Shown: one piece after another, positions 10,101-51,500 of the stretch
Layout: each line of letters starts with the position of its first letter
Position numbering within the stretch: position 1 is the stretch's first letter
NCBI GenBank assembly: GCA_965221455.1
Contig: OZ244890.1
Coordinates: 283,031 to 347,030 of the forward strand
DNA length: 64,000 bases
Direction of reading: 5' to 3'
DNA from: Gammaproteobacteria bacterium
GTDB lineage: Bacteria > Pseudomonadota > Gammaproteobacteria > Eutrophobiales > Eutrophobiaceae
Translations under genes and position numbers: made by a program
The notes under the pieces: generated by a model
The model's database searches: none
What the model saw: only the letters and a program-made list of their open reading frames with translations
What the model was told of the DNA's origin: nothing

Positions 10101-11195
10101 CGTGGTCGAGGTATCTATCTTTAATGTATCCGCAATATAGGGGCCACGATCCAGATCATTGGTATGAAGTGTTTTGATCGTTAATCCTTTATATTCGAGT
10201 AGCTGTTCAATGAGTTCTTCTGTGAGTTCCGTATTCGCCGCCGCAACCAGTTCACCTGTTTCCACATCAATAATATCTTTTGCCAATACCTGCCCATACA
10301 AATATTCACTCGGTACTATCAGTTGTTTAAGCCCGGCTTTTTCAATTTCCCTGATATGACGCGCAGTAATTCGACGTTCCCGCTCTACAATTACCTTAGC
10401 TTTTTTATCTTTAATATCAAAAGTTGCAGTCTGGCCACGTAAACGATCCGGGATCAGGCTCAATGCAATACCCTTTTTGCTGATCTTGAATTCGTTAGTA
10501 TCAAAAAAGATATCCAGTATTTCCTGGGTATCATAACCTAGCGCACGCAATAAAGTAGTAGCCGGTATTTTCCTACGACGATCAATACGACAATAAACAA
10601 AATCTTTTGGATCAAACTCAAAATCAAGCCAGGAACCACGATATGGAATCACGCGTGCCGAGAACAGCAACTTTCCTGAAGAGTGAATTTTACCCTTGTC
10701 ATGTTCAAAAAAGACACCCGGAGAACGATGTAACTGAGAAACGATAACACGTTCTGTGCCGTTAATGACAAAGGCGCCAGTCGTTGTCATTAACGGGATT
10801 TCACCCATGTAGACTTCTTGTTCCTTGACATCTTTAACAACTTTTTTATTCGAACCCGCATCTTTGTCATAGATCACCAGACGAACCGTGACCCGCAATG
10901 ATGAAGCGTAAGTAATACCTCTGAGTTGACACTCCTTAACATCAAACACGGGATCGAATAATCGATAGCTGACATATTCAAGCATGGCGCTACCCGAGAA
11001 ACCGACGACGGGAAACACAGATTTAAACGCAGCCTGCAGACCGACATCCACCCGTTCTTCAGGCTTGACATCCAATTGTAAGAATTTACGATACGAATCA
11101 AGCTGCACCGCCAACAAAGCAGGTACATCCATGATCTTTGGATGTTTCCCAAAATCCTTGCGTATGCGTTTCTTTTCAGTGTAGGAATAGCTCAT
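7116..11195 (-). CDS. rpoB: DNA-directed RNA polymerase subunit beta
   Basis: The 1359-aa ORF starts [17 protein letters not shown] and contains [19 protein letters not shown] and [26 protein letters not shown] (the Rif cluster region). Confidence 0.97.
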
Positions 11196-13799: not shown

Positions 13800-13940
13800 A
13801 ATCTTCTCCCTGGGTAGTAACGCTTCTCAGCTCCCCACTACAAAAACCTTAAACCTGGTAAATTAAAACGGATATATTAAAGATTTCTTGTTTCATAAAA
13901 TTTCTGAAAACGACTAACGCTAATTTGACCTGCTGCTGAA
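13800..13940 (-). promoter_or_regulatory. rplKA promoter/leader, the expected L1 autoregulatory site
   Basis: A 140-nt AT-rich gap lies between nusG and rplK. The call is positional only. Confidence 0.3.
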
Positions 13941-32666: not shown

Positions 32667-35600
32667 CTACCGCAAGAGTGCCTCGATATTCGTCCTTACC
32701 TCATTGAACGATGGATTGCCCGGAATGGTATCGAGCAGGCCCACCGTGTCGCGAATACCAAACAGATAGCGGCCCAGCAAGAGTCCGTCACTCTGGTTAG
32801 GATCACCACCGCTGCCATCCACGTCAAGACGACCGCTGGCGAAAGCTCCCGCAATATTCGTCGTGACCGCATTGAACGAGGGACTCCCCGGAATCGTATC
32901 AAGCAAGCCCGCCGCATCACGAATACCAAACAGGTAGCGGCCCAGCAAGAGTCCGTCACTCTGGTTAGGATCACCACCGCTGCCATCGACATCAAGACTC
33001 ACCGCCGCCATCTCCGTCACCGTCACCGTTACGGTGGCCGCCGTGACGGTACGATAGTTGGTGTCGGTACTGGTCACCGTATGCGTGAGTTGCACGGTCT
33101 CGTCGTCTGTATCAGCGTCTTCCACTCCCGTCACGGTGATGGTTTTGGCGGTATTCCAGTCGGTGGTGCCAAACATCAGTGAGGTGGGACTCACCGTCAC
33201 AGCAGCGGCATTGGATTGGGTCACGCTAATCGTCACTGCTTCCGTCGGTGGGGTATTCAAGCGCAGCGTATACATGCCGGTACCTCCACGTTCATGGACT
33301 GTCAGCGTCGTGGAACTCACAGCCACGCCCGGCGTGTCGTTATCATTCAAGGTCACAGCGACGGGATCTATCGTCACGCCACTGGCATAGTCGGCATCTG
33401 TGCTTGTCGCCGTATGCGTGAGTTGCACGGTCTCGTGGTCTGTATCCGTATCCTCAACACCACTCACGGTCACCGTTTGGGCACTGTTCCAGTTGTCTGT
33501 GGTAAACGTCAGTGAGGTGGCACTGAGGGTCACTGCAGTGGTATCGGGATTGGTCACCATAATCGTCACCGGTACGGTCGGTCGCTTGGTCAACGCCAGT
33601 GTATAGGTGCCACTGCCAGCTTCGTCGACCGCCAGCGTGGTCGGACTCACGGTCACGCCCGCCGTCTCATCATCATCCACCGTCACCGCCACCGCACTTA
33701 TCGTCACGGTACCCCCATTGTAGCCAGGGTCGGTACTGGTCGCCGTATGCGTGAGTTGCACGGTCTCGTCGTTCGCATCCGTGTCCTCAACACCACTCAC
33801 GGTCACCGTCTGGACACTGTTCCAGTTGTCTGTGGTAAAGGTCAGTGAGGTGGCACTGAGTGTCACCGCCGTGTCATCGGGATTGCTCACGCTAATCGTC
33901 ACCGGCGCCGTCGGTAGGGTAGACAGGCTTAAACCATACTCGCCGGTCTCACCCTCATTGACCGCCAGCACGTTCAGACTCACGGTCACGCCCGCCGTGT
34001 CGTTATCCGTGACATTCACGGTCACGGCGGGCGGGGTCAGCGCGGCATAGGTCGCATCGCTGCTGCGCACCGCATGGGTCAGTTGCACGCTCTCGTGGTT
34101 CGTATCAGCGTCCTCAATAGCCATTACCGTCACCCTCTGCGGCATATTCCAGTTGCTCGTGCTAAAGTCCAGGCTGGACGGGGTCGCCGGACTCACCGTC
34201 GCCACATCGGCATTGAACGTTTGCGGCAGAATGCTCACGGTCGCCGATGGTCGGCTACCCAGTCGGATGGTATAGGTCGCCGTGAGTCCCTCAGTCACAG
34301 TCAACGTGGTCGGACTCAGCGTAACACCCACCATATCGTTATCTGTTATGGTGATGGCTGGACCGGGAAACACAACCGAGTCGTAAGCTCCGTCGCCGCT
34401 GCCGACATCCGGAAAATTCAGCACCACCGTCTCATCATCTACATCGTCATCCTCAACAGCGGTCACCGTTACCGTCTGCGGGATGTTCCATTGGCGGGTG
34501 GTAAAGGTCAGGCTGATCGGACTCACGGTCGCAGCATTTCTATTGCTGCTTCCTATAGAGAAAATTTCCACCGACCCTGTCGGTTCAGTCGCCAACCTTA
34601 CCGTAAACCCGACAGTCTCGCCCTCATTGAGCACCAGCGCGGGCGGACTCACGACGATACCCGCCGCGCCGTTATCCGTGACACTCACGGTCACGGCGAG
34701 CGGCGTCACCCCGGCATAGCCCGTATCAGCGCTGCTCAGCGCATGACTCAGTTGCACGCTTTCGCTGGTCGTATTCGCGTCCTCAACAGCCGTCACGGTC
34801 ACGGTTTGGGCGGCATTCCAATTGACTGTGGTAAAGGTCAGTGGTGAGGTCACGGTCACCGCAGCATTGTCACTGGTCACGCTAATCGTGACCGCGTGCG
34901 TCGGTAGGGTATTCAAGCGCAGCGTATACTCGCCGGTCCCGCCTTCAAAGACCGCCAGCGTGGTCGTACTCATGGTCACGCCCGGCGCGTCGTTATCCGT
35001 GACATTCACGGTCACAGGGGGCGAGTTCACCCCGGCATAGCGCGTATCGCTGCTGCTCAGCGCATGGCTCAGTTGCACACCGCTCTCGCTGGTCCTGTTA
35101 TTGTCCTCGGCACCCATCACCGTCACCGTCTGCGCCTGGTTCCAGTTATTCCTGGTAAAGGTCAGCGACGCAGTGGCGGTGACGGCGGGATTGTCACTGC
35201 TCACGCTAATCGTGACCGCGTGCGTCGGTAGGGTATTCAGGCGCAGCGTATACTCGTTGGTCTCGCCCTCATTGACCGCCAGCGTGGTCGTACTCACAAT
35301 CACGTTGGCATCGTTATCCGCGACATTCACGGTCACGGGGGGCGGCGTCAGCGCAGCATAGTTCGCATCACCGCCGCTCACCGTATGGGTCAGTTGTACG
35401 CCGCGTTCGTTGGTCGCATTCGCGTCCGCAGCACCCGTCACGCTCACGGTTTGGGCGGCATTCCAGTTGATTGTGCTAAAGGTCAGGGTCGCTGGGCTCA
35501 CGGTCACCGCAGCATTGTCACTGCTCACGGCAATCGTCACCGCCACCGTCGGTCGGCTGCCCAGCACCAGCCCATAGCCGGTGCTGCTGCCCTCGGTCAC

Positions 35601-38231
35601 ATTCAGCGCGGTCGGCGACACCCGCACACCCGCCACCGGGCCTACCGGGTCGGACGTCAGGCTATCGCCTCCCGCATTCGGATAACTCGCCATCACGCGC
35701 AACCAACTGCCTATCTGTGATTGGTCTGATGCAATGGTGTACGTGGCGGTATTGTTCGTCCCCGGTGCGGCGGTAAACGGTCCCGCCGAGGCGGTCGCTG
35801 TCTGCCATTGATATGTAATGGTGCCGACATCGGTATTGGGTGAGGCGTCCGCGTCGGTGACCGACCCCGCCGTCAGTGTGACGCCGACTCGGGCAGTGCC
35901 GGTGAGTGTGCCGATGGCACCGCGACGGTCAGCCCGCACGATATTGGAGAACAGGGTGTCGTTGAAATCCCCGCTCTGGGTGACCCGCACCCGCAGCCAG
36001 TTGCCCTGGTCCGCCGCTTGTACCGTGTAGGTCGCCGCCGTGCCGCCCGGGCTGATAGCTGTTGCACTGCTACAGTTTTGAGTGGTGCAGCGTTGCCATT
36101 GCCGGGCGCTGATATTGACGGTCAACCCGGGATGGCTCAGCGCACCGGCGGTCAGGATATCGCCGACATTGGCCGGGGTGTTGGGGGTACTGTCCTGGAT
36201 GGCGCCTAATGACACGAGCGTCGCATCATGAATATGGTTGTCGGTGGCACTCAGTGCACCGATGGCTTGTTTGGTGATAGCTGCGGCACCGGCCCCGATA
36301 TTGCACAGCGACGAGCTGGTTTGTACGGTTTGTTCGGTGTCGGTCGTGGTCCCTGAGCGCACTCCTAAATCACCGCTGGCGTTACATAAAGTGTCCAATA
36401 AGACCACGCCGTTGTTGGCGGACGGTCGGTAAAACAAGACGCCCGGCCCCGGGATAGCGGTCCATGAGGGGTTCGGACGGGACAGGCCGGACTTCAGGCT
36501 TATACTCTCGAAGAGTGTGCCGGTGCTCGGGGTCGCCTGCCCGGTTGTGATGTGATTATTGATACTTACAGTATCTGCTCTACCGGGGTATTGAACTACC
36601 GTGAGTTGCAACCGACCATCGTTCTCGCGGACGAGTATCGCGCCTGTGATGTCAGCCCCGTTTCTCTCCGTCGCATTGGTATACCCGGCCGGGCCGTTGA
36701 CGAGATAGTTCCTCCAAAAGATCAGATTCGGACGGGTCTCGGTGCCCCCGTGGTTGGTGGTGTCGGTGTCGTAGGCATTGGCACAATGGCTGCCCGCCCC
36801 GGCATTACAGGTGCGTGTCTGGTTCTTGTCGGTGATATTGCCCGCACTCCAGGCGCCCCAGCCGTCGTCGTGGTTTATACCAGAATCTGCCGCCGCTATA
36901 GACTGCTTGGTGAGGTCGTAGGGAGTGGATAGACACAGGTCTCGCAGACCTGGGTGTGTTGTTGTTGTTACTTGTGTCGTGGCGGACTCACGCAACATTA
37001 CGTTGACGGACGTACAAGAAATTTGCGTGATTACTTCACCGTTACTGGCTATAGACAGCCTGCCTGATCCTGGAATAGCGGCGAAGCCGCTGTTAAACGG
37101 ATTGTGCCAGTCGTTGTCGCCTGCATTCCAGGCGGCGAGGAAGTTGGCGAAGGCCGGGAACGCCCTGAGTAGGGTGGTTCGGAAAGGGACCGACAAGTTG
37201 AGGGGTCCTGACTGCCGGTCATACCACGCCTCCAGCGTGGTCGGGCTGATAATCGCCGACATGTCTAGCGGCCTCCACCCGCCGGTCGGATGCCCGGACT
37301 CCGGGTATAGGACCGGATTGGTGCCTTCCGGGCAGGGGGTGTTCGGGCCGGGAGTGCCGACGACGTTGACACTGCACCTCCGCCGGGTCGTCACGGTCTC
37401 ATTATTGATTGACCCGGTGTAGGTGTACGATGCCGTATCCGGTGCTTCTGCGTACATCGGGGTATTGAAATCACGATGTAGTAGTGATGTGCCGATACTG
37501 CCTGCGTTGTATGTATTGACCACCGCTTGCGGGGTATGGCAGCGGGCGTCTCTTTGCACTGTTGTTCTCTCCGGGCGGAGCAGGCTGCCAGTGCCGCCTC
37601 CCTCAATATAGGACTGCGGGTGGCTGTTGTTTCTGCGGCAGCGGACGGTGAATGCTTGCCCGTCTGCGTCATAGACGGTGACCGTGACGTTCAGTCTTGG
37701 GTTGCGCACTCGTCGGGCGATGTTAATAGGACCAATAGAGGTCGTACCATTCACCATAGTAGCATTGCAAAACTCGCTTACGATATCGTCAGTAATCTCG
37801 CCATCTGTGCTGCAATTGTCGTGGGTACCAGAAAAGCCCCAGTTGTCGCCCGCAGGGGTATGACCTAGATTCCCCGCAGTACCACTATGATCGTCGTGGA
37901 CAGCGCTGCTACGTATGAACCAGGGCACGACGACCACATTGTTGCCGACCTGGACGTTGTATCGCCCGTTCAGGAAGGCAAAATTGGAGATGCCGTCACC
38001 ATCTGCGGAGCGGCTTGTGAGACCGCCGCCCAGATTATACCTGTGGCCGCTACCGCCTGTATCCGGGATGATGTAATTGGCGTCGGGTACCCCCGCCACC
38101 CGAAAACTGTCCGCAAGCGGAGCCGTCGCCAGTGCCGCCGGGCTTACCCATGCCGTCATTAGGGCGACGGCGGCTATCATCCCGCGCCAAGACCCCGACC
38201 GTTCGGCGGTTGACCGCAGTTGCCTCGTCAT
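32667..38231 (-). CDS. Giant secreted multi-repeat protein A. Order: signal peptide, ~750-aa Cys-containing N-terminal region, 2 Ig-like modules, ~10 Calx-beta/cadherin-like repeats, tandem dockerin-type C-terminal pair
   Basis: The open frame runs 32667..38624 (1985 aa). A signal peptide MTRQLRSTAERSGSWRGMIAAVALMTAWVSPAALA begins at M132 (ATG 38229-38231). Upstream of that the frame reads HHAPRTT repeats encoded by a heptamer SSR, so it is likely untranslated. The repeats have the form VTVSPTTLxVxEG..TYTLxL...PTxxVTIxV...TFTTxNWNxAQTVTVxGVEDxDxxDE.VQLTH with acidic linkers such as VTDNDTPG and VTVDDDETAG. The C-terminus is LDVDGSGGDPNQSDGLLLGRYLFGIRD twice, a dockerin-like calcium-binding loop plus helix. 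GC3 is very high compared with flanking genes. Confidence 0.8.
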   Translation of the reverse strand: MTRQLRSTAERSGSWRGMIAAVALMTAWVSPAALATAPLADSFRVAGVPDANYIIPDTGGSGHRYNLGGGLTSRSADGDGISNFAFLNGRYNVQVGNNVVVVPWFIRSSAVHDDHSGTAGNLGHTPAGDNWGFSGTHDNCSTDGEITDDIVSEFCNATMVNGTTSIGPINIARRVRNPRLNVTVTVYDADGQAFTVRCRRNNSHPQSYIEGGGTGSLLRPERTTVQRDARCHTPQAVVNTYNAGSIGTSLLHRDFNTPMYAEAPDTASYTYTGSINNETVTTRRRCSVNVVGTPGPNTPCPEGTNPVLYPESGHPTGGWRPLDMSAIISPTTLEAWYDRQSGPLNLSVPFRTTLLRAFPAFANFLAAWNAGDNDWHNPFNSGFAAIPGSGRLSIASNGEVITQISCTSVNVMLRESATTQVTTTTHPGLRDLCLSTPYDLTKQSIAAADSGINHDDGWGAWSAGNITDKNQTRTCNAGAGSHCANAYDTDTTNHGGTETRPNLIFWRNYLVNGPAGYTNATERNGADITGAILVRENDGRLQLTVVQYPGRADTVSINNHITTGQATPSTGTLFESISLKSGLSRPNPSWTAIPGPGVLFYRPSANNGVVLLDTLCNASGDLGVRSGTTTDTEQTVQTSSSLCNIGAGAAAITKQAIGALSATDNHIHDATLVSLGAIQDSTPNTPANVGDILTAGALSHPGLTVNISARQWQRCTTQNCSSATAISPGGTAATYTVQAADQGNWLRVRVTQSGDFNDTLFSNIVRADRRGAIGTLTGTARVGVTLTAGSVTDADASPNTDVGTITYQWQTATASAGPFTAAPGTNNTATYTIASDQSQIGSWLRVMASYPNAGGDSLTSDPVGPVAGVRVSPTALNVTEGSSTGYGLVLGSRPTVAVTIAVSSDNAAVTVSPATLTFSTINWNAAQTVSVTGAADANATNERGVQLTHTVSGGDANYAALTPPPVTVNVADNDANVIVSTTTLAVNEGETNEYTLRLNTLPTHAVTISVSSDNPAVTATASLTFTRNNWNQAQTVTVMGAEDNNRTSESGVQLSHALSSSDTRYAGVNSPPVTVNVTDNDAPGVTMSTTTLAVFEGGTGEYTLRLNTLPTHAVTISVTSDNAAVTVTSPLTFTTVNWNAAQTVTVTAVEDANTTSESVQLSHALSSADTGYAGVTPLAVTVSVTDNGAAGIVVSPPALVLNEGETVGFTVRLATEPTGSVEIFSIGSSNRNAATVSPISLTFTTRQWNIPQTVTVTAVEDDDVDDETVVLNFPDVGSGDGAYDSVVFPGPAITITDNDMVGVTLSPTTLTVTEGLTATYTIRLGSRPSATVSILPQTFNADVATVSPATPSSLDFSTSNWNMPQRVTVMAIEDADTNHESVQLTHAVRSSDATYAALTPPAVTVNVTDNDTAGVTVSLNVLAVNEGETGEYGLSLSTLPTAPVTISVSNPDDTAVTLSATSLTFTTDNWNSVQTVTVSGVEDTDANDETVQLTHTATSTDPGYNGGTVTISAVAVTVDDDETAGVTVSPTTLAVDEAGSGTYTLALTKRPTVPVTIMVTNPDTTAVTLSATSLTFTTDNWNSAQTVTVSGVEDTDTDHETVQLTHTATSTDADYASGVTIDPVAVTLNDNDTPGVAVSSTTLTVHERGGTGMYTLRLNTPPTEAVTISVTQSNAAAVTVSPTSLMFGTTDWNTAKTITVTGVEDADTDDETVQLTHTVTSTDTNYRTVTAATVTVTVTEMAAVSLDVDGSGGDPNQSDGLLLGRYLFGIRDAAGLLDTIPGSPSFNAVTTNIAGAFASGRLDVDGSGGDPNQSDGLLLGRYLFGIRDTVGLLDTIPGNPSFNEVRTNIEALLR

Positions 38232-38541
38232 ACCCGTGAGCGTGTACGTTTTTGCCTCTTGATGCAGGCGGTGCTGTGGAGTATTGCGCGGGTCGCCGTC
38301 AACGCAGCGGGTGTTGCTTCTGTTGCGGTCCGCCAACGCTTCGCTCAAGCGGCGGTTCCAGCACGCTACCTTGCCGTGGATCTGTGGACGGCATCCATGC
38401 GTCAGAGGATGCAGAACCTTATGTCGGGCACTCCCTCCATCCACGGTCACGCATGCGGTGCGTTCGGTCATGGACCAGTTATGCCGGGGCCTGGTGGCGC
38501 AGCGGTCTGCGTGAGTATTGCGGTGGTGGCACCACTTCCAC

Positions 38542-38599
38542 GTGGTGCGTGGTGCGTGGTGCGTGGTGCGTGGTGCGTGGTGCGTGGTGCGTGGTGCGT
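38542..38599. repeat. Heptanucleotide simple sequence repeat (GTGGTGC)x8.3, perfect
   Basis: Read directly from the sequence: cgtGGTGCGTGGTGCGTGGTGCG...gtt. It lies ~310 nt upstream of the probable start of giant gene A, just downstream of a TTGACA-18nt-TAGACT promoter-like element. The unit length is not a multiple of 3. The equivalent site upstream of gene C (~51035-51050) has only an unexpanded gtggtggtg-like remnant. Confidence 0.9.
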
Positions 38600-38601
38600 T
38601 A

Positions 38602-38631
38602 AGTCTAAGTCGTTTTGTCAACATATGTCAA
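38602..38631 (-). promoter_or_regulatory. Putative sigma70-type promoter for giant gene A (-35 TTGACA, 18-nt spacer, -10 TAGACT)
   Basis: The minus-strand sequence is cTTGACAtatgttgacaaaacgacTTAGACTtaa, followed immediately by the heptamer SSR. The homologous stretch upstream of gene C has a degenerate -35 (ACGACA/CTGACA). This is pattern-based only. Confidence 0.3.
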
Positions 38632-39205
38632 GTTCTCTCTAGTCAGTCATCCAGATTGCTATGCTGTCAATTGTACCATTATCCGCGCAGTATTAAATAC
38701 ATCATATCGTGCACCACACCACATATGGCACTGTTTGTTGTGATTGATCATGTACTGTACAGGTCGTGAACAATCCCGGCTCTTTGTGAGAGGCGTATGC
38801 TGTTGTATTTGATTCGCCCATCCGCCGGTTTTTGGTTCAACCGATTGAGCGCTGCAAACCGTCAGTCTTCGTGAATGTCGAGAACGCCTCTGCTTCGGTA
38901 CTGTTGACCGGTAGGCCCACCCAACCTTGCGCACGGTGCGCTTTCCGGCGACTGTTACCGCTGTGGCTCAGGGGCGGCGGGCAAACCCTGTGTCTCCCGG
39001 AGTTGCAGCACACGCAGACGCTGTGCCGCCATTGCATTGTGCATCCCCGCTTGTATCGCTTGACACCCGAGACGATAAACACTCTCAAGCCGATAAACCG
39101 GGTGCCGAGATTACACCCGTCTTTATCCTGCAATGTTGTTGCCGAACTGATACCGCCAGGCCTCTGCAAAGCCTGTGCAATGAACGGTCTGTCTATTGAC
39201 CCACA

Positions 39206-42200
39206 CTATCGCAAGAGTGCCTCGATATTCGTCCTTACCTCGTTGAACGATGGATTGCCCGGAATGGTATCAAGCAGGCCTACCGTATCGCGAATACCAA
39301 ACAGGTAGCGGCCCAGCATGAGACCGTCACTCTGGTTAGGATCACCGCCGCTGCCATCCACGTCAAGACGACCGCTGGCGAAAGCTCCCGCAATATTCGT
39401 CGTGACCGCATTGAACGAGGGACTCCCGGGAATCGTATCAAGCAAGCCCGCCTCATCACGAATACCAAACAGGTAGCGGCCCAGCATGAGACCGTCACTC
39501 TGGTTAGGATTACCGCCGCTGCCATCCACATCAAGACTCACCGCCGCTGTCTCCGTGACCGTCACAACCAGGGCGGCCGTCACGGCACGATAGGCGGTGT
39601 CCATACTCGTCACGGCATGACTCAGTTGTACGCGCTCGTCGTCCGTATCAGCGTCCCGGACACCCATCACCGTCACCGTTTGGGCACTGTTCCAGTTGTC
39701 CTCGGTAAAGGTCAGCGTCGCCGTCACCGTCACCGCATCTGTATCAGGACTGCTCACCGCAACCGTCACCGCCGCACTCGGCCGACTGGTCAACACCAGC
39801 ATATAGGTGCCGGATCCGCCTTCTCCCACCGTCACCCGGCCCGGCGTCAGCGTCAACCCCGCCGTATCATCATCATTCACCGTCACAGACACCGCCGCCG
39901 CCGTCACGGCAGCATAAGCAGTGCCGGTACTCGTCACAACATGACTCAGCTGCACACCGCTGGCGTCATTCGCATCAGCATCCTCAACACCCATCACCGT
40001 CACCGTCTGCGCTGTGTTCCAGTTGTCCTCGGTAAAGGTCAGCGTCGCCGTCACCGTCACCGCCGCCGTATTAGCACTGCTCACCGCAATCATCACCGCC
40101 GCATCCGGCTGGCTGGTCAACGCCAGCATATAATTGCCGCTACCGCCTTCCAAAATCGTCAGCGCGGTCTGACTCACCGCCACGCCCGCTGTATCATCAT
40201 CTCTCACCGTCACATCAACAGCGGCTATCGTCACCGCACCAGCATTGTAGGCGCTATCCGCACTTGCCGACGTATGGCTCAGCCTGACACTTGCATTGTT
40301 CGTATCACCATCCTCAACACCCGTCAGCGTCACTGTCTGGCCCCGGTTCCAGTTGTCCGTGGTAAAGGTCAGGGTCGCCGGACTCGCGGTCGCCCCGGCG
40401 GTATTGCCATTGCTCACCGTCACCCTCACCTCGTCCGTCGGTCGGGTATTTAATACCACCATATAGCTGCCGGTACCGCCTTCATCAATCGTCGGGTTCG
40501 TCGGAGCCACGGTCACGCCCGCCACGTCGTTATCCGCCACGGTCACCGGGAGCGTCGTCGTCACCGCACTGCCGTTGTAGGTACTATCCATGCTGGTCGC
40601 CATATGCGTCAAAAGCACCGTCTCATTGATCCCGTTCGCATCCTCAACCGCCACCACCCTCACCGTCCGGGCCTGGCTCCAGTTGCTTGTCGTGAACATC
40701 AGCGGGGTGCTGCTCACGGTCGCCGCAGCGGTATTGTCACTCGTTACCATAATCGTCACATCGTTGCGCGGCCGGGTCGCCAGCGCCAGCGTATAGCTGC
40801 CCGTGTCGCCTTCACCCACCGTCAACCTGCCCGGCACCACGGTCATACCCGCGATATCATCATCCGTCACTGTCACATCGACAGTGCCTATCGTCAACGC
40901 ATTAGCATTATAGGCAGGATCCGCACTCACTGCCCTGTGACTCACTATGATGCTTGCATCGTTTGCATCAGGGTCCTGGACACCACGCACTGTCACTGTC
41001 CTGGCCGTGCGCCAGTCGCTGGTGGTAAAGGTCAGACTCGTCGGACTCGTGTTTACCACACCACTATTGGGGATCAACAAGTCCACCGTCACAACGGCGA
41101 CCGGTCGACTGGTTAGCGCCAGCATGTAGGTGCCACTACCGCCTTCAGGGACCCTCAGCGTAGACGGCATTACCGTCACACCCGCCGTCTGGATATCTTC
41201 CACAGTCACGGTGACAGCGTTTATCGTCACCGCAGGAGTACCTGCATAGGCAGGACCGCCGCCGTTAAACGTATGCGTCAGGGAGACGGTCTCGTCGTTC
41301 GCATCAGCATCCGCAACACCCATCACCGTCACCGTCTTGGCCGTGTTCCAGTCGTCCATGTCGAAGGTCAGCATCGCTGGACTCACCGACGCCGCTTCAG
41401 CGTCGTCAGTCATCACCGTAATCGTCATTGCCGCCGTCGGCCGGGTATCCAACACCAGCGTATAGGTGTTGTTGTTCGTGCCCTCATTGAACGTCAACGA
41501 GGTCTCACTCACCGTCACGCCCGCCGTCTCGTTATCATCCACAGTCACGCTGACATCGGCTATCGCCACAGCATTACCGTTATAGGTATTATCCGTGCTG
41601 CTCGCCGTATGCGTGAGTTGCACATCAACTTCGTTGTTCGCGTCAGCATCCTCCTCTCCCGTCACTGTAAACGTCTTACCCGTGTTCCAGTCGCTCGTGC
41701 TAAAGGTCAGTGTTGTCGGGCTGACCGACACCGCACCCATGTCACCACTCCCCACCGTAATCATCACGGCATGCGCCGGTTGGGTATTCAACATCAGCAT
41801 ATACTCGACGTTAGCACCTTCGGCGACCTCCAGCCTGGTGGGACTCACGCTCACACCCGGCGTATCGTTATCGCTCACGTTCACGCTGACCGCAGCCGGC
41901 ATCACCGCATTATAGGCGATGTCGCTACTGCTAACTGTATGAGTCAGGCTCGCACGCTCGTTGGTCGAGTTCGCATCTTCAGCACCCGACACGGTGACGA
42001 TTTGTGGTATATTCCAACGGTCTCTGGTAAACATCAGCGGCGTGGCACTGACTGTCGCAGCCTCGTTGTTGCTCGCTACGGTTATCATTACAGCAGTACT
42101 CGGCTGGCTGCCCAAAACCAGCATATAGGTACCGGTACCCCCTTCACTCACGGCCAAGGTGTCAGTACTTACGTTGACGCTTACCATTTCATCATCTGTC

Positions 42201-44938
42201 ACGGTCACCGTAATGCTCACCGCAAGAGCGAGATAACCGGGATCGGCACTGACGGTGCCCAGCCTCAGCGCCACCGTCTCATCGCTTGCATCAGCATCCC
42301 CGATGCCGGTCACCGTCAACGTTCGGGCGATATTCCAATTGGTTTCGTTAAAGGTCAGGCTCGGCGACGGGGTGACGGTCGCAATCGCGGTATCCGCGCT
42401 TTCGATGAGCACAACAACCGGGTGTGTCGGTCGGCTGTGGAGCCTCAGGGTCAACGTGCCCATCTCACCTTCTTTCACGTTGAGTTCAGTCACCACGTCA
42501 AGACCTGCCATGTCGTTATCCGTCAAGTTCACCATCACATCATCCGGCGTCAAGGTGCCATAGCGGGCGTCTGTACTGCTCACCCGATGACTCAGGCGCA
42601 CGCCGCTTTCACTCACCGCATCCACATCCTCAACTCCCATCACCGTCACCGTCTGCGGCATGCTCCAGTTGTCAGAGGTAAACATTAACGGCGACGTCGC
42701 GGTCGCGGCACTGATATCGTCACTACGCACCGTAATATTTACCGCAGCACTCGGCGGCGCATCCAGCACCACGGTATAGTCACCCGTGCCGCCTTCAGCC
42801 ACGGCCAGCGTGGTCAAACTCACCGTCACACCAGGAGACGGCACTTCGTCATCCGTCACCGTCACGGCGACGCTGCGGGCGACTCCATCATAGTTAAGGT
42901 CTGTACTCGCACTATTCAGCGTCAGGCTCACGCTCTCATCCCTGGCGTCAGCATCTTCAACCGCCATCACCGTCACCGTGCGTGGTTGATCCCAGTCGGC
43001 GCCGCTAAACACAAAGTCCGATGGACTGATGCTCACGGCGCCATCATCGGGATTCGAGATGACCATGGAGACAATATCCGTCGGCAGGCTATTCAGGACT
43101 ACCGTGAACGTGTTGTTGCCGCCTTCGGCAACGGTCAACGCGGTCGTGCTCAGCCTCACGCCCGCCGTATCGTTATCCGTCGTGTTGACCACCACAGGGA
43201 AGATGCTGACATCATTGTAATCGTTATCCATGCTGCTCACGGTGTGACTCAGGCGCACGCGCTCGTTGCTGGCATCGGTATCCTCCACGCCGGTCACGGT
43301 CACGGTGCGGGCGACATTCCAATTGGTCGTGGTAAACGTCAACGAGGAAGTCACCGTGACGGCGTCCTGCGCGTCACTGGTCACCATCACGGTCACCGCG
43401 GCACTCGGCCGGGTATTCAATTCCAGCGTATACATACCGGTCGACCCTTCGGCCACCGTCAGCAGGGTCGCACTGACCGTCGCCCCTGCCACTTCGTTAT
43501 CCGTCACCGTCACCGTCACGGTGCCACTGTTATCATCACGGCCAGCATTCGTCACCGTCACCGCCACACGGTTATAGCTGCTATCCATGCTGGTGACCGT
43601 ATGACTCAGGCGCACGCTCTCATGGTCCGAGTCGGCATCCTCAACGCCCGTCACCATCACCGTCTGCACCGTATTCCAGTTATCTTCGGTAAACGTCAGC
43701 GAGGGGGTCGCGCTCACCGCTTCCGGATCGCCACTCGTCACCGCTACCGTCACATCAGCACTCGGCAGGGTATCCAGTACAATGCGATAGCCACCGGTGT
43801 TACTTTCGCCGACCGCCACAGTGGCCGGGGTCACCGTCACACCGACTGTCTCTCTATCCATCACGGTCACATTGACAGGCGAGAATGTCTTACCACTATA
43901 GTCGCCGTCTGTGCTCGCGGTCATATGACGCAGGCGTACTGTCTGGTCGCGTGCATCAGGATCTTGCGCACCGTTCACGGTCACCGTCTGCGCCCGATTC
44001 CAGTTATTCCTGCCAAAGGTCAGGCTCGTTGGACTCGCGGTCGCAATATTCGAATCGTCACTCACTACCATCACTGTTACAGCGTGACTCGGTTGGCTGC
44101 CTAAAGCTAACATGTAGGTGCTGTTGCTACCTTCGTCGACAGTCAAACTGGACGGCACCAGCGTCACACCCACCACTTCGTCATCCGTCACGGTCACAGT
44201 CACAGGATCCGGTGCGAAACCACGGTAGGTAGTATCTGTAGTGGTCACCGTATGGTTCAGGCGCACGGTCGCGTCATTCGCATCTCCATCATGGATACCC
44301 GTCACCATTACCGTCTGGACAGTGAACCAGTTGACGGAGGTAAACATCAGACTCGCCGGGGTCACCCTCGCGGCACCAGTATTGGTACTTGTCACGGCAA
44401 TATTGACATCCTCTGTCGGCGGGCTATTTAGCCTGACAGTATAGTTACCCGTGGCACCTTCATTAACAGTCGGCGTGCTGGAGCTGAACACCACACCAGG
44501 CTGCGCCTCGTCATCTATCACGACTGCGGTTATGTTCTGGTTTGCAGTCGAAGAACTGTTGAAGTTAGTGTTACTACCTTCTGTACGAAATCCCAGACTC
44601 ACCATCTCATGGTTCCCATCAGCATCCTCAATAGCGCGCACCGTCACCATTTGTGCTACATTGGTAGGAACATTGAACATCAGGCTCGCAGGAGTCACTG
44701 TCACGGCATTAGTGTTTCCACTCATCGGTAAAAAGTTTACAGTGCCTGTCGCACCACCAGAGTCTATGGAAACCTGGTAGGTGGCGGTTGCGCCTTCTGC
44801 AATAGTCAGCACACGATCAGCAGTGCTTTGGACGGTCACGCTAAGCTGCGCGAACACCGGAGTGGTAAAAAAACAGCTTAACGCTGCCAAGCGCAGCAAA
44901 TTCAGAACAGAGAGACGACCCGTCATGTTATTCAGCAT
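39206..44938 (-). CDS. Giant secreted multi-repeat protein B. Order: signal peptide, ~16 Calx-beta/cadherin-like repeats, tandem dockerin-type C-terminal pair; no large N-terminal domain
   Basis: The 1910-aa ORF starts MLNNMTGRLSVLNLLRLAALSCFFTTPVFAQ (signal peptide) and goes straight into ~110-aa repeats. Its C-terminal ~110 aa are almost identical to gene A, including ...DTIPGNPSFNEVRTNIEALLR*. It contains a block (41595..41915) nearly identical to part of gene C (47610..47930). Confidence 0.85.
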   Translation of the reverse strand: MLNNMTGRLSVLNLLRLAALSCFFTTPVFAQLSVTVQSTADRVLTIAEGATATYQVSIDSGGATGTVNFLPMSGNTNAVTVTPASLMFNVPTNVAQMVTVRAIEDADGNHEMVSLGFRTEGSNTNFNSSSTANQNITAVVIDDEAQPGVVFSSSTPTVNEGATGNYTVRLNSPPTEDVNIAVTSTNTGAARVTPASLMFTSVNWFTVQTVMVTGIHDGDANDATVRLNHTVTTTDTTYRGFAPDPVTVTVTDDEVVGVTLVPSSLTVDEGSNSTYMLALGSQPSHAVTVMVVSDDSNIATASPTSLTFGRNNWNRAQTVTVNGAQDPDARDQTVRLRHMTASTDGDYSGKTFSPVNVTVMDRETVGVTVTPATVAVGESNTGGYRIVLDTLPSADVTVAVTSGDPEAVSATPSLTFTEDNWNTVQTVMVTGVEDADSDHESVRLSHTVTSMDSSYNRVAVTVTNAGRDDNSGTVTVTVTDNEVAGATVSATLLTVAEGSTGMYTLELNTRPSAAVTVMVTSDAQDAVTVTSSLTFTTTNWNVARTVTVTGVEDTDASNERVRLSHTVSSMDNDYNDVSIFPVVVNTTDNDTAGVRLSTTALTVAEGGNNTFTVVLNSLPTDIVSMVISNPDDGAVSISPSDFVFSGADWDQPRTVTVMAVEDADARDESVSLTLNSASTDLNYDGVARSVAVTVTDDEVPSPGVTVSLTTLAVAEGGTGDYTVVLDAPPSAAVNITVRSDDISAATATSPLMFTSDNWSMPQTVTVMGVEDVDAVSESGVRLSHRVSSTDARYGTLTPDDVMVNLTDNDMAGLDVVTELNVKEGEMGTLTLRLHSRPTHPVVVLIESADTAIATVTPSPSLTFNETNWNIARTLTVTGIGDADASDETVALRLGTVSADPGYLALAVSITVTVTDDEMVSVNVSTDTLAVSEGGTGTYMLVLGSQPSTAVMITVASNNEAATVSATPLMFTRDRWNIPQIVTVSGAEDANSTNERASLTHTVSSSDIAYNAVMPAAVSVNVSDNDTPGVSVSPTRLEVAEGANVEYMLMLNTQPAHAVMITVGSGDMGAVSVSPTTLTFSTSDWNTGKTFTVTGEEDADANNEVDVQLTHTASSTDNTYNGNAVAIADVSVTVDDNETAGVTVSETSLTFNEGTNNNTYTLVLDTRPTAAMTITVMTDDAEAASVSPAMLTFDMDDWNTAKTVTVMGVADADANDETVSLTHTFNGGGPAYAGTPAVTINAVTVTVEDIQTAGVTVMPSTLRVPEGGSGTYMLALTSRPVAVVTVDLLIPNSGVVNTSPTSLTFTTSDWRTARTVTVRGVQDPDANDASIIVSHRAVSADPAYNANALTIGTVDVTVTDDDIAGMTVVPGRLTVGEGDTGSYTLALATRPRNDVTIMVTSDNTAAATVSSTPLMFTTSNWSQARTVRVVAVEDANGINETVLLTHMATSMDSTYNGSAVTTTLPVTVADNDVAGVTVAPTNPTIDEGGTGSYMVVLNTRPTDEVRVTVSNGNTAGATASPATLTFTTDNWNRGQTVTLTGVEDGDTNNASVRLSHTSASADSAYNAGAVTIAAVDVTVRDDDTAGVAVSQTALTILEGGSGNYMLALTSQPDAAVMIAVSSANTAAVTVTATLTFTEDNWNTAQTVTVMGVEDADANDASGVQLSHVVTSTGTAYAAVTAAAVSVTVNDDDTAGLTLTPGRVTVGEGGSGTYMLVLTSRPSAAVTVAVSSPDTDAVTVTATLTFTEDNWNSAQTVTVMGVRDADTDDERVQLSHAVTSMDTAYRAVTAALVVTVTETAAVSLDVDGSGGNPNQSDGLMLGRYLFGIRDEAGLLDTIPGSPSFNAVTTNIAGAFASGRLDVDGSGGDPNQSDGLMLGRYLFGIRDTVGLLDTIPGNPSFNEVRTNIEALLR

Positions 44939-45505
44939 CAGTTATTCCACCATCAGTTCTACAACGATTGATAATATCCCACATTAATTAACGTCATGCG
45001 CTCCCACTGGCAAACCTACCGTTTACCATGTTCATCACCTTCACATCCACGCTGTTTGATATTCGACCAGCGACCGCTGATCGTTGCACGACCGACTACA
45101 GACTGCTGAGCGTACCAGAAAAACACACAATAACTCAAGACCTAATCAATGCTTCTCCGAACGTTTCACGTTTTCACCCATCCCTGATTGATGTCAAGAC
45201 ACTTCTTTTGAAGTCGATGACCTGCAAACCTGCAGCTCAGGATTCCGCCTCCGAGAGGTCATCATTTTTGGCAACGTACACCCGTCTGCAATCGGCGATA
45301 TTTTTTCCTTATTCCCTTGATATTTACAGAAAGCACTACCGGGTTGCTATTATCGTCCGCCAGTCGGTCTATAGCCCAGGAAAGGATACGCGCTGTTAAT
45401 TCGGTACATGTTGCTTGAAATTTTCAATCGGCATGGCCGTACTCACAGCAATAAAAAACAATGAGTCAGCCACCCATGAAAAAACAACTTCCGGCTATTT
45501 CCCCA

Positions 45506-48500
45506 CTACCGCACACGCACAAGCGCTCCGATATTCCTCGTTACGTCGTTGAACGATGGATTGCCCGGGATAGTATCAAGCAAGCCCACAGTGTCACGAA
45601 TACCAAACAGATAACGACCTATCATCAGACCATCACCTTGATTCGCAGCACCGCCGCTGCCATCCACATCAAGACGACCGCTGGCGACAGCCCTTGCAAT
45701 ATTCGCCGTGACCACACTGAACGATGGACTCCCCGGGATAGTATCAAGCAAGCCCACCATATCACGAATACCGAACAGGTAGCGGCCTATCATAAGCCCG
45801 TCACCCTGGTTAGGTGCACCGCCGCTATTATCCACATCAAGACTAATCGCCAGCTCCGTGACAGTCACAAGCACGGCGTCTGGCGTCACCGCAGCATAGC
45901 CTGTATCAGTGCTGCTCACCGTATGCGTTAGCCTGACGCTCTCATTGTCCACATCAACGTCCTCAACACCCGTCACCGTCACCGTCTGGACCCTGTTCCA
46001 CTCGTCTATGGCAAAGGTCAGAGTCGCAGGACTCACCGTCGCCTCAGTCGCATCAGCACTCGTCACCGCAATCCTCACCTCCGCACGCGGCTGGCTGGTC
46101 AACACCAGCGTATAGGTCCTGGTATCATTTTCGGTAACGCTCAGTGTGGTAGGAGTCACCATCACGCCTGCCGTCTCGTCATCATTCACCGTCACGGTGA
46201 CAGCGTCTATCGTCACCGCAGGGTTAGCATCTGCATAGGCAGGTCCGCCGCCGCTAAACGTGTGCGTCAGAGAGACGCTCTCGTTGTTCGCATCAAGATC
46301 CTGCTCACCCGTCACCGTCACCATCTTTGGCGTATTCCAGTCGTCCATGGCAAAGGGCAGTGTCGCTGGACTCACCGACACCGCTCCATCATCGTCAGAC
46401 ATCACCGTAATCACCATCGCCGCCGACGGCTGGGCATCCAGCACCAGCGTATAGGTGGTGGTGTTCGTGCCCTCATCGAACATCAGCTCGGTCTCACTCA
46501 AAGTCACGCCCGCCGTCTCGTCATCATCCACCGTCACAGTGACCCCGGCTATCGTCAAAGCAGGGTTAGCATCTGCATAGGCAGGACCGCCGCCGCTAAA
46601 CGTGTGCGTCAGAGAGACGCTCTCGTTGTTCGCATCAGCATCCGCAATACCTGTCACCGTCACCGGCTTCGGCGCGTTCCAGTCGGCCATGGTAAAGGTC
46701 AGCGTCGCTGGACTCACCGATGCCGCTCCCTCGTCGTCAGACATCACCGTAATCACCATCGCCGCCGTCGGCTGGGTATCCAACACCAGCGTATAGGTGG
46801 TGTTGGCCGTGCCTTCATTGAACATCAGCTCGGTCTCACTCAAAGTCACGCCCGCCGTCTCGTCATCATCCACCGTCACGGTGACCCCGGCTATCGTCAA
46901 AGCAGGGGTGGCATTTGCATAGGCAGGTCCGCCGCCGCTAAACGTGTGCGTCAGAGAGACAGTCTCGTTATTCGCATCAGCATCCTCAACACCCGTCACC
47001 GTAAACACCTTGGGCGTATCCCAGTCGCCCATGGTAAAGCTCAGTGTCGATGGACTCACCGACGCCGCTTCAGCGTCGTTACTCATCACCGAAATCGTCA
47101 TATCCGCCGACGGCTGGACATCCAGCACCAGCGAATAGGTGGTGTTGGTCGTGCCCTCATCGAACGTCAGGTTGGTCTCACTCACCGTCACGCCCGCCGT
47201 CTCGTCATCATCCACCGTCACGGCGACCCCGGCTATCGTCAAAGCAGGGGTGGCATCGGCATAGGCAGGTCCGCCGCCGCTAAACGTGTGCGTCAGAGAG
47301 ACAGTCTCGTTGTTCGCATCAGCATCCTCAACACCCGTCACCGTAAACGTCTTGGGCGTATCCCAGTCGCCCATGGTAAAGCTCAGTGTCGATGGACTCA
47401 CCGACGCCGCTTCAGCGTCGTTACTCATCACCGAAATCGTCATATCCGCCGACGGCTGGACATCCAGCACCAGCGTATAGGTGTTGTTGTTCGTGCCCTC
47501 ATTGAACATCAACTCGGTCTCACTCACCGTCACGCCCGCCGTCTCGTCATCATCCACCGTCACGGAGACAGCGGTTATCGCCACCGCATTACCATTATAG
47601 GTATTATCCGTGCTGCTCGCCGTATGCGTGAGCTGCACATTGACTTCGTTGTCCGCGTCAGCATCCTGCTCTCCCGTCACCGTCACCGTCTTACCCGTGT
47701 TCCAGTCGGCCGTAGTAAAGGTCAGTGTTGTCGGGCTGACCGACGCCGCACCCATGTCGCCACTCGCCACCGTAATCATCACGTCCGCCGCCGGTTGGGT
47801 ATTCAGCATCAGCATATACTCGACGTTAGCACCTTCGGCGGGCTCCAGCCTGGTGGGACTCACGCTCACACCCGGCGTGTCGTTATCCCTCACGGTAACG
47901 GCCACAGTAGTCAGCATCAACGGTCGATAGAGCACATCGCTGCTATTATCCACTGTATGCGCCAGGCTGACGTTTCCGTCGGTCGCATTACTATCCTCAA
48001 CACCCATCACCGTCACCGTCTTGGCCGTGTTCCAGTCAACATTGGTAAAGGTCAGTGATGTCGGGCTGACCGTCGCCGCTCCCGTGTCGCCAGTCGCCAC
48101 CACCATAATCGTCACATCCGTCATCGGCCGAGTCTCCAGCATCAGCGTATAGCCGCCGCTACCGCCCTCACTGACCTCCAGCGTGGACGCATTCAAAGTC
48201 ACGCCCGCCGTGTCGTTATCATCCACATTAACGGTGACACCAGCTATCGTCACCGCATTACCATTGTAGGTCGCATCCGTGCTCTCCGCCGTATGCGTGA
48301 GCCGCACACTGACTTCGTTGTTCGCGTCATCATCCTGCTCACCCGTCACCGTCACCATCCGGGCCACGTTCCAGTTAGCACCGGTAAAGGTTAGTGTTCC
48401 CGGGTTGACCGACGCCGCATCCGCGTCGCCACTCGCCACCGTAATCACCACGTCATTCGCTGGCTGGCTGGTCAACATCAGCGTATAGATGCCGGTCTCT

Positions 48501-50770: not shown

Positions 50771-51500
50771 CTCGCGCCGAACTCCTGGCCCGCTGGCAAG
50801 TTCGGCGGTCGACCGCAGTTTCCCCGTGATGCCCGCAAAAGTGTACGCTTTTGCATAGTGATAGCGCATGTGCAGTGAGGTGTTGCGCCTATCGCCGTCA
50901 ACGCAGCGGGCGATGCCACGGTGCTTGCGCGTCAGACGATGCAGAATACCGTGTTGTGTACACAACACGTCCGCAGCAACGTGCGCTTCACATTCGGTCA
51001 TGACAATGTTAAGCCTGTGTCTGGTGGAGGTGTGGTGGTGGTGCTTGTCGCACGACACCAGCGTGGTGGTAAGGCGTTTACGTAATTTTGTCAGCATATG
51101 TCGTGTTCTCTCTCGTAAGTAGTCCAGATTTACCCCCACATACCCATCCCGCCCGTGACTGTTTCCAGTCCCCGCTGTGGACAGTTAGTTGAAGTGGATG
51201 CTATTATAGCCAACAGATACCTCGATTGATACCACTATCCGATACCCATGCGCCCAGGCGCCCAGGCGCGGTGGTGAGGGCAAAATCGGATACAGATACG
51301 AATGATGGGTACTTGAGTCTGAGCTATCGTGTCCAGTGAAGACCTTGAACGGCAACAATATCACCATTCCCTGCTGTCGCCGTCGTGCTATCACGAAATC
51401 GGAACGGCGGGCAGGAATCCGAAAATTTCGCCAGCAACGCCACCGCACGTAATATTCCGGCAGTATCTTTTTTTCAAGATGCCGTGTCGCATGGACCGGG

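Follow-up and report, generated by a model that had tools for sequence, protein, structure and literature searches.

What is the function of the cysteine-containing region with which two of three neighboring giant genes open in a 64,000-nucleotide (nt) stretch of bacterial DNA (contig OZ244890.1, positions 283,031 to 347,030; hereafter the window)? The three genes, termed A, B, and C, are open reading frames (ORFs) that all lie on the minus strand (32667..38624, 39206..44938, and 45506..51139, respectively). The host is an uncultured gammaproteobacterium with a 2.5-Mb genome, and the genes belong to a lineage-restricted, multigene family of large Sec-exported proteins. A first-pass annotation of this DNA had noted that A and C begin with a non-repetitive, cysteine-containing region followed by two modules of about 100 amino acids (aa), and this arrangement, along with the peptides quoted in that annotation, is indeed seen in the translations. 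We propose that this region, the head of proteins A and C, is a variable, disulfide-stabilized binding tip, a reading that its sequence features suggest and to which we assign roughly even chances. The general plan of the family consists of a signal peptide, a head cassette, two immunoglobulin (Ig)-like modules, a stalk of ~110-aa repeats that number from 2 to over 20, and a doubled C-terminal module, wherein the head cassette is drawn from module Z, module Y, one to three copies of module X or, in one paralog, Spondin_N. As an overall plan, the placement of a functional head on a giant stalk of repeats is well known.

If translation is counted from the ATG ahead of a canonical signal peptide (MTRQLRSTAERSGSWRGMIAAVALMTAWVSPAALA followed by TAP), gene A occupies 32667..38231; it lies on the minus strand, as do all of the features described below for the three genes. 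Its frame is open up to an ATG at 38624, where the public gene calls start (1985 aa). Numbered from the ATG at 38231, residues 1 to 34 form the predicted Sec signal peptide (38130..38231), with an A-L-A cleavage motif read by eye. Residues 35 to 666 are non-repetitive, and residues 667 to 866 comprise the two ~100-aa modules. The remainder consists of eight ~110-aa stalk repeats (33003..35630) and the doubled C-terminal module of ~56 aa. The head of A is divided into module Z (residues 35–260, 226 aa; 37452..38129), module Y (residues 261–451, 191 aa; 36879..37451), and module X (residues 452–669, 218 aa; 36225..36878), the last of which defines the family. Z and Y each carry four conserved cysteines, and X carries four invariant ones. 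The Ig-like modules follow at 35931..36191 (Ig1, with C715/C720 and a QWQRC motif) and 35634..35915 (Ig2, with the motif VGTITYQWQ ... TATYTI ... WLRV).

Gene C, which in the public call is read as 1863 aa from an MLTK start at 51097 (45506..51097), lacks Z and carries module Y (50120..50710), module X (49460..50119), the two Ig-like modules (48878..49426; Ig1 at 49166..49426 and Ig2 at 48878..49150), and nine stalk repeats (45845..48868). The first ATG immediately ahead of its hydrophobic segment is at 50770, and the position that matches the 38231 start of A reads ATC, such that no ATG is present there. Gene B (39206..44938) is composed of a signal peptide, 16 stalk repeats, and the C-terminal tandem module, without a head and without Ig-like modules. 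In all three proteins, the N-terminus bears a hydrophobic signal segment with a site of the AxA type. When all six frames of the window were scanned with hidden Markov models (HMMs), the head model matched only at 36225..38126 (A) and 49460..50725 (C), and the Ig model matched only at 35634..36191 (A) and 48878..49426 (C). These scans agree with the earlier observation that B runs from its signal peptide straight into stalk repeats. The same annotation had described a head of ~750 aa common to A and C, and this figure must be revised: what the two proteins share amounts to ~410 head residues and 200 residues of Ig-like sequence, and the ~226 additional N-terminal residues of A (Z) are wholly absent from C.

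The distribution of cysteines sets the head apart from the rest of these proteins. In A, 14 cysteines, arranged as local pairs, lie in the head and none in the other ~950 aa; B contains one cysteine. All 12 cysteines of Z, Y, and X are kept in every available copy, and the stalks lack cysteine. Module X, which is ~215 aa long and extends from GWGxWS..NIxDKNQTxTC to LSATDNY, occurs singly, doubly, or triply in tandem. In some genes it is preceded by Y, which in turn is preceded by Z in some genes. Y and X show a distant relationship between their C-terminal halves (hhalign E 1.6e-5, probability 79%), and no relationship was found between Z and Y or between Z and X.

Searches for relatives of the head outside this family returned almost nothing. 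Comparison of Z, Y, X, and the whole head with Pfam, NCBIfam, PADLOC, and PHROGs gave no meaningful match, the best being a B3 domain at E 0.04. Likewise, no significant match to Protein Data Bank (PDB) sequences was found for Z, Y, and X combined, either by phmmer with a single sequence or with a profile (best, eS4 at E 0.73 and azurin at E 0.085). The azurin alignment, which covers Z positions 26–112 and, as the motif was read, places an aspartate opposite the copper ligand His46, was set aside as not significant and is a lead at most. A 634-position profile of Z, Y, and X, searched exhaustively with HMMER against 1.84 billion representative proteins, recovered six clusters only, five of which are this family. 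The sixth (P0014) is a secreted protein of 149 aa that is 37% identical to the first ~110–120 aa of Z. It is encoded on a 95.6-kb phage-like contig (L031), beside genes for ribonucleotide reductase and a primase-helicase, and a second, frameshifted copy lies 2 kb downstream (L031 8001..8450 and 10388..10685). DNA-level scans of GTDB species representatives yielded only Ig modules and no further head, and scans of JGI metagenomes and IMG/VR yielded no head.

Protein databases under-sample such giant genes, which are easily missed: for a close relative, the public annotation of the giant gene at the syntenic place consists of antisense ORFs, so the family is under-represented in these collections. 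The first-pass annotation could not assign the head to a known family, and the more sensitive searches described above likewise end without an assignment. By all tests run, Z, Y, and X appear to lie outside any described family.

Alignment of 17 copies of module X reveals a conserved frame (GWGxWS..NIxDKNQTxTC ... LCNxGA..TxQ) that is nearly invariant, interrupted by hypervariable stretches at residues 70–83, 91–109, and 120–127, where both sequence and length vary. When X was modeled alone with AlphaFold from this alignment, the mean predicted local distance difference test score (pLDDT) was 61 and the predicted template modeling score (pTM) was 0.53. Residues 45–130, which hold the variable stretches, form a confident, mostly beta core (pLDDT 79–93). 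No fold match was obtained with this moderate model, which is too weak to claim a new fold.

The same alignment also provides an argument for a different function. Twelve polar residues (D17, K18, N19, Q20, H43, E47, R49, D87, R134, D170, R174, and E182) are invariant in all 17 copies of X, as might be expected if the head were an enzyme or toxin domain, whether glycan- or matrix-degrading or cytotoxic, that acts on a host or competitor surface from its place at the stalk's end. Enzymes are common among the N-terminal passenger domains of autotransporters, and a relative of the host (L034, see below) has an autotransporter version of this stalk. However, the head bears no sequence or fold likeness to any catalytic family, and tandem series of two or three copies, as found for X, are characteristic of binding modules and uncommon among catalytic domains. 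Furthermore, variation is confined mainly to the three stretches on an otherwise fixed frame, and the paralog P0013 swaps most of its head for Spondin_N, a domain of the extracellular-matrix type. We therefore favor a binding tip over an enzyme because the local cysteine pairs are conserved, X is found in tandem, its stretches vary on a fixed frame, and the head can be exchanged for one with Spondin_N. A catalytic or toxic head we regard as unlikely.

The start of X, where GWGxWS is followed by QTRTC, recalls the WSxWS and RxRxC elements of the thrombospondin type-1 repeat (TSR), a likeness at the motif level only. Spondin_N accompanies TSRs in animal F-spondin, and P0013 has Spondin_N. Nevertheless, a TSR identity for this segment was rejected: no Pfam TSP_1 match was found at E≤10, and hhalign against one TSR sequence gave a probability of 4% over 13 columns. 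Unlike a TSR, X lacks the CSVTCG cysteines; the six-cysteine pattern with CSxTCG is absent from its start, where only two cysteines (C-x7-C) are present. The idea that a diversity-generating retroelement produces the variation in X was also dropped because the variable stretches differ in length.

In contrast to the head, the two modules that follow it belong to a known superfamily, which supports the earlier proposal that they are Ig-like. A profile built from 25 modules (Ig1 and Ig2 of the window plus 23 relatives) matches solved Ig-like chains with E-values from 3.9e-14 to 1e-4, including phage tail and decoration proteins, T4 Hoc, RemA, and the plant protein SCAB1 (9c2d_S, 3.9e-14; 9ncf_S, 4.7e-13; 5lxk_A, 1.3e-7; Hoc 5vf3_Z, 8e-6; SCAB1 4dix_A, 1e-4). 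Relatives within this alignment match the Pfam families IG_AIR9, SCAB-Ig, and Ig_7, and the Ig2 module of A matches the NCBIfam family ZirU_fam at E 1.1e-6 (29 bits, under the family cut-off of 100). The modules of the window alone reach no curated cut-off (IG_AIR9, E 0.069, 13.4 bits versus 27.5), and Ig2 scanned alone matches no Pfam family at E≤0.1. Relatives recur in giant proteins of many bacteria, including metagenome-assembled genomes of sponge symbionts. ZirU and ZirS of Salmonella have been described as proteins of the Ig-superfamily type (PMC4943183). Like Hoc, phage decoration proteins, AIR9-A9, SCAB-Ig, Ig_7, and ZirU-ZirS (PMC4943183), Ig1 and Ig2 co-align with such modules of giant bacterial proteins; unlike in those systems, they form a fixed pair that joins head to stalk instead of a repeating unit.

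How did A and C come to share their heads? The alignment opens at residue 261 of A and residue 31 of C, and residues 261–899 of A and 31–677 of C are 76% identical in aa sequence and 84% in nt sequence (BLASTP and codon-threaded alignment). Nucleotide identity over the shared region is not low overall, yet it is very uneven, ranging from 44% to 98%. The minimum of 44% falls at A residues 393–425, most of Y and X lies at 70–89%, and peaks are reached at A residues 577–606 (94%) and over Ig1–Ig2 (91–98%). Module by module, the synonymous divergence (dS) of the A/C pair varies ~12-fold: Y has the highest value (0.49), followed by X (0.27), Ig2 (0.18), and Ig1 (0.04). The two antisense ORFs cited in the first-pass annotation as a sign of this relationship (36018..36209 and 49253..49444) do exist and are 93.75% identical in nt sequence.

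The mosaic character of the head becomes more evident when A is compared with the whole family in sliding windows of 60 aa. Which paralog stands closest to A switches at intervals of 40–100 residues, and it is seldom C. In order, the closest relatives are P0002 (up to 98%), P0001/P0008 (96–98%), P0007 (88%, later 100%), C (64–88%), and P0012 (97%). Since the nearest paralog switches and dS is uneven by segment, these alignments indicate repeated recombination or gene conversion across the family rather than one A/C duplication. The earlier suggestion of a recent segmental duplication or gene conversion is thus borne out in part: the uneven dS fits conversion, and the single A/C duplication gives way to a family-wide mosaic.

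The competing account, wherein the A/C likeness reflects a single recent tandem duplication and the head is functionless, decaying filler, has in its favor that A and C are neighbors in the same orientation with 84% nt identity over the head, and that several paralogs are truncated or frameshifted (P0001 with P0138, and P0002). It predicts neither the ~12-fold unevenness of dS between segments nor the fact that the nearest relative of A is usually a paralog elsewhere. Both the A and C ORFs remain intact across more than 5.5 kb, and all cysteines are kept in all copies. In addition, the ratio of nonsynonymous to synonymous divergence (dN/dS) between A and C is 0.56–0.64 in Y and X, which are therefore under constraint and no neutral pseudogenes. 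The pattern of dS, the switching of nearest paralogs, and the conservation of cysteines largely refute this account, and we judge it highly improbable.

The family comprises about a dozen genes. The contig of 2,504,188 bp to which the window belongs, which encodes a TrkH protein 100% identical to that of the window and on which A, B, and C (read from the upstream MLTK start) are also on record, holds at least 12 members, namely A, B, C, P0001–P0008, and P0138. The proteins P0009 and P0011–P0013 may derive from this genome or from a close relative. The head layouts observed among these members are Z-Y-X, Y-X, X, X-X, X-X-X, and the Spondin_N type, in which an X tail is succeeded by Ig modules and Spondin_N. 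P0013 carries Spondin_N (Pfam E 7.3e-40) in place of most of the head while keeping an X tail, the Ig modules, and the doubled C-terminal module; the Pfam Spond_N family was found only in P0013 and is absent from A, B, and C. P0012 combines an A-type stalk (85–97% identity) with an X-only head. The majority of copies appear to be complete genes, each with a signal peptide of its own. P0001 (867 aa, head plus Ig) ends out of frame, and P0138 starts inside Ig2 and has a stalk at least 90% identical to that of A, so that a single A-like gene seems to have been split into these two by a frameshift. Of P0002, only a fragment of 485 aa with Z and Y is present. Given P0001/P0138 and the fragmentary state of P0002, the family includes decaying copies.

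Shuffling of heads among a dozen genes of a 2.5-Mb genome is unusual, with parallels among surface-protein families. Anaplasma msp2, Treponema tprK, and the Mycoplasma adhesin families diversify by segmental gene conversion, and the present family has in common with them a small genome rich in paralogs, a mosaic pattern of similarity in which the nearest neighbor switches, uneven dS, and variation in short stretches. Unlike the msp2/tprK-type families, there is no evidence here for one expression site fed by silent cassettes, and whole modules, beyond short segments, are gained, lost, or duplicated.

The stalks of A, C, and B comprise eight, nine, and 16 repeats, respectively. The stalk of C includes an array of 4.1 copies of a 342-nt unit (46162..47580; 90% identity), and similar arrays of 321–333-nt units are present in A and B. 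The 342-nt array indicates recent internal amplification of stalk repeats. Whole-protein scores for the Pfam family fn3_6 are 38–45 bits (cut-off 26.4), with no single stretch passing in full-protein scans. In a 550-aa stalk fragment, five fn3_6 stretches are seen, only at E≤5. The best PDB match of a stalk profile is to a Big_1 protein (E 0.12).

The C-terminal modules (LDVDGSGGxxNQSDGLLLGRYLFGIRD...) lie at 32667..33002 in A (two tandem copies), 39206..39538 in B, and 45506..45844 in C. At their 3′ ends the genes are 91% identical in nt sequence between A and B, and C is 80% identical to either. P0136, a 180-aa secreted protein encoded on another contig, contains two units that resemble this module. 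Searching the module against a set of 5.8 billion proteins gave two matches and missed obvious paralogs, and the result is therefore uninformative. Assignment of the module as a dockerin was rejected: the likeness (DxDGSGG..DGLLLxRYLFG) is by eye only, without a match to Pfam Dockerin_1 or to a solved dockerin.

These conserved 3′ ends bear on another view of the proteins, namely that they are structural or self-associating components of a matrix, sheath, or S-layer-like assembly, wherein the head, instead of binding a foreign ligand, mediates homophilic or protein-protein contacts with the C-terminal module or with other members of the family. Many paralogs share the same C-terminal tandem module, as exemplified by the 91% identity of A and B. 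B is intact though headless, such that stalk and C-terminal module must work alone, and the calcium-loop-like motif in the module, noted by eye, suggests assembly. On the other hand, hypervariable stretches and head shuffling are unexpected for a self-recognizing interface, and the window yielded no domain of the cohesin-like or S-layer kind. We consider this view improbable and return to the binding tip.

An indication of how such a tip might be presented comes from a relative whose TrkH is 84% identical to that of the window (L034; ENA ERZ26166933 contig_4). At the syntenic site, after trkH, a methyltransferase gene, and a TPR gene, L034 carries a giant ORF (13835..21451, minus strand) whose stalk repeats are 40–43% identical to those of B and which ends in a Pfam Autotransporter beta-domain (E 7.3e-12). 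The public calls over this ORF are antisense ORFs without Pfam matches. In a second relative (L032, TrkH 82% identical), no giant gene is present at the syntenic site. Autotransporters are displayed with the C-terminus in the outer membrane and the N-terminus pointing outward. If A and C are presented in an analogous way, their N-terminal heads would form the distal, functional end.

A, B, and C themselves are not classical autotransporters of type Va, in that no Pfam Autotransporter beta-barrel was found in them; the orphan doubled module appears to take the place of the barrel. Nor do they conform to the RTX or type I adhesin class, since no RTX or hemolysin-type calcium-binding match was found in them and an N-terminal Sec signal is present instead. 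They resemble type Va passengers and the RTX adhesins MpIBP, LapA, and SiiE in having long series of beta-rich repeats of ~100 aa and a non-repetitive end module, and they resemble autotransporters through the fusion of this stalk to an Autotransporter beta-domain in L034. They differ from these giant adhesins in lacking a beta-barrel, RTX repeats, and a type I secretion signal, in starting with a Sec signal peptide and ending in the orphan doubled 56-aa module, and in having head modules without relatives in any known adhesin.

If the head is a binding tip, its cysteines would form local disulfides after periplasmic export, with C475–C483 and C616–C643 as the predicted pairs in X of A, and the stalk would hold it away from the cell, where it would bind an external ligand on a host, particle, or partner surface. 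The copy number of X, together with loop variation, would tune avidity and specificity. Several points weigh against this reading. Surface display of A, B, and C is assumed by analogy: no domain for anchoring in, or secretion across, the outer membrane could be recognized in any of the three, and their neighborhood in the window contains no secretion genes. The dockerin-like C-terminal module has no Pfam match (E≤5 and E≤1), no NCBIfam match, and a best PDB match at E 1.1. The AlphaFold model of the whole head is unusable (mean pLDDT 34.7; 20–30 over the Ig region), and the fold of X alone is modeled only moderately. The conserved polar residues of X (D, K, N, Q, H, E, and R) are also compatible with a catalytic site. 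Moreover, variation among paralogs is no proof of diversifying selection, and the one dN/dS value above unity (1.3 in Ig1) derives from very few substitutions.

If the heads are indeed binding tips, Z, Y, and X would represent three new extracellular domain families with no other relatives among the 1.84 billion representative proteins, and the locus would provide a compact example of an uncultured bacterium with a small genome in which surface diversity arises from the exchange of whole head modules among giant genes. The finding by itself opens no long-standing question.

The regions 5′ of the head genes carry features of their own. A perfect heptanucleotide repeat is present at 38541..38599 (CACCACG on the gene strand, which is the minus strand, and CGTGGTG on the plus strand; 8.4 copies, 100% matches), ~310 nt upstream of the signal-peptide ATG of A, in what is either a 5′ leader or an extension of the ORF. 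At the equivalent place, paralogs P0003 and P0004 have 24-nt in-frame repeats (APQHHSTT, about 5 and 11 copies). The frames of A (38232..38640) and C (50771..51115) are open for 131 and 109 codons, respectively, upstream of the signal segment, with zero in-frame stops versus three to six in the other forward frames. Each open frame starts at a conserved element, GAGAGAAC..GACATATG.TGACAAAA, whose MLTK start is used by the public gene calls; in A this element can also be read as a promoter of the sigma-70 type, with TTGACA and TAGACT separated by 18 nt, immediately ahead of the repeat. Over the alignable 3′ part and adjoining signal-peptide codons (~180 nt), A/C substitutions by codon position number 12, 7, and 12, with no third-position excess. 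This stretch, rich in H, R, T, and C, may be either a translated extension or a 5′ untranslated region (UTR).

The hmw adhesin genes of Haemophilus influenzae carry a heptanucleotide repeat in the 5′ UTR (PMC12721329, PMC8262952). Gene A resembles these phase-variable hmw1A/hmw2A genes (PMC8262952, PMC12721329) in having a perfect 7-nt tandem repeat 5′ of a very large adhesin-like gene, and the array at 38541..38599 shows the sequence hallmark of a phase-variable contingency locus, namely a perfect short tandem repeat in a 5′ region. Unlike the hmw1A/hmw2A repeat, which is ATCTTTC, that of A is CACCACG, is known from one assembly only, and lies in a 5′ leader or ORF extension. The repeat might add on/off or level switching to the expression of A. 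In a bolder scheme, Z, Y, and X would be new folds which, together with the Spondin_N swap, tandem and variable X modules, gene conversion, and the 5′ repeats, constitute a programmed surface-variation system that re-assorts fiber tips in a probably host-associated bacterium. This scheme we put forward tentatively and hold to be doubtful.

The giant genes are flanked on one side by ntrY/ntrX-like genes, trkA, trkH, and a methyltransferase gene, and on the other by ampE/ampD-like and other genes. They differ from these surroundings in composition. The GC content of the giant genes (32667..51139) is 0.58–0.64 and their GC content at third codon positions (GC3) is 0.65–0.73, compared with 0.43–0.50 and 0.41–0.52 for nearby housekeeping genes. 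Because GC3 differs, the shift sits in synonymous sites, beyond what amino-acid composition alone accounts for. The same contrast is found at the syntenic giant gene of the relative (0.63 versus 0.435). Two explanations would fit this pattern, namely acquisition from a foreign source or gene conversion with a GC bias among recombining family members. Long antisense ORFs (257–598 aa) are present on the plus strand opposite the giant genes at 34074..34847, 41273..42688, 42986..44104, and 46262..48058. The two that were checked (41273..42688 and 46262..48058) are absent from the public collection of proteins, and the antisense ORFs appear to be by-products of biased composition.

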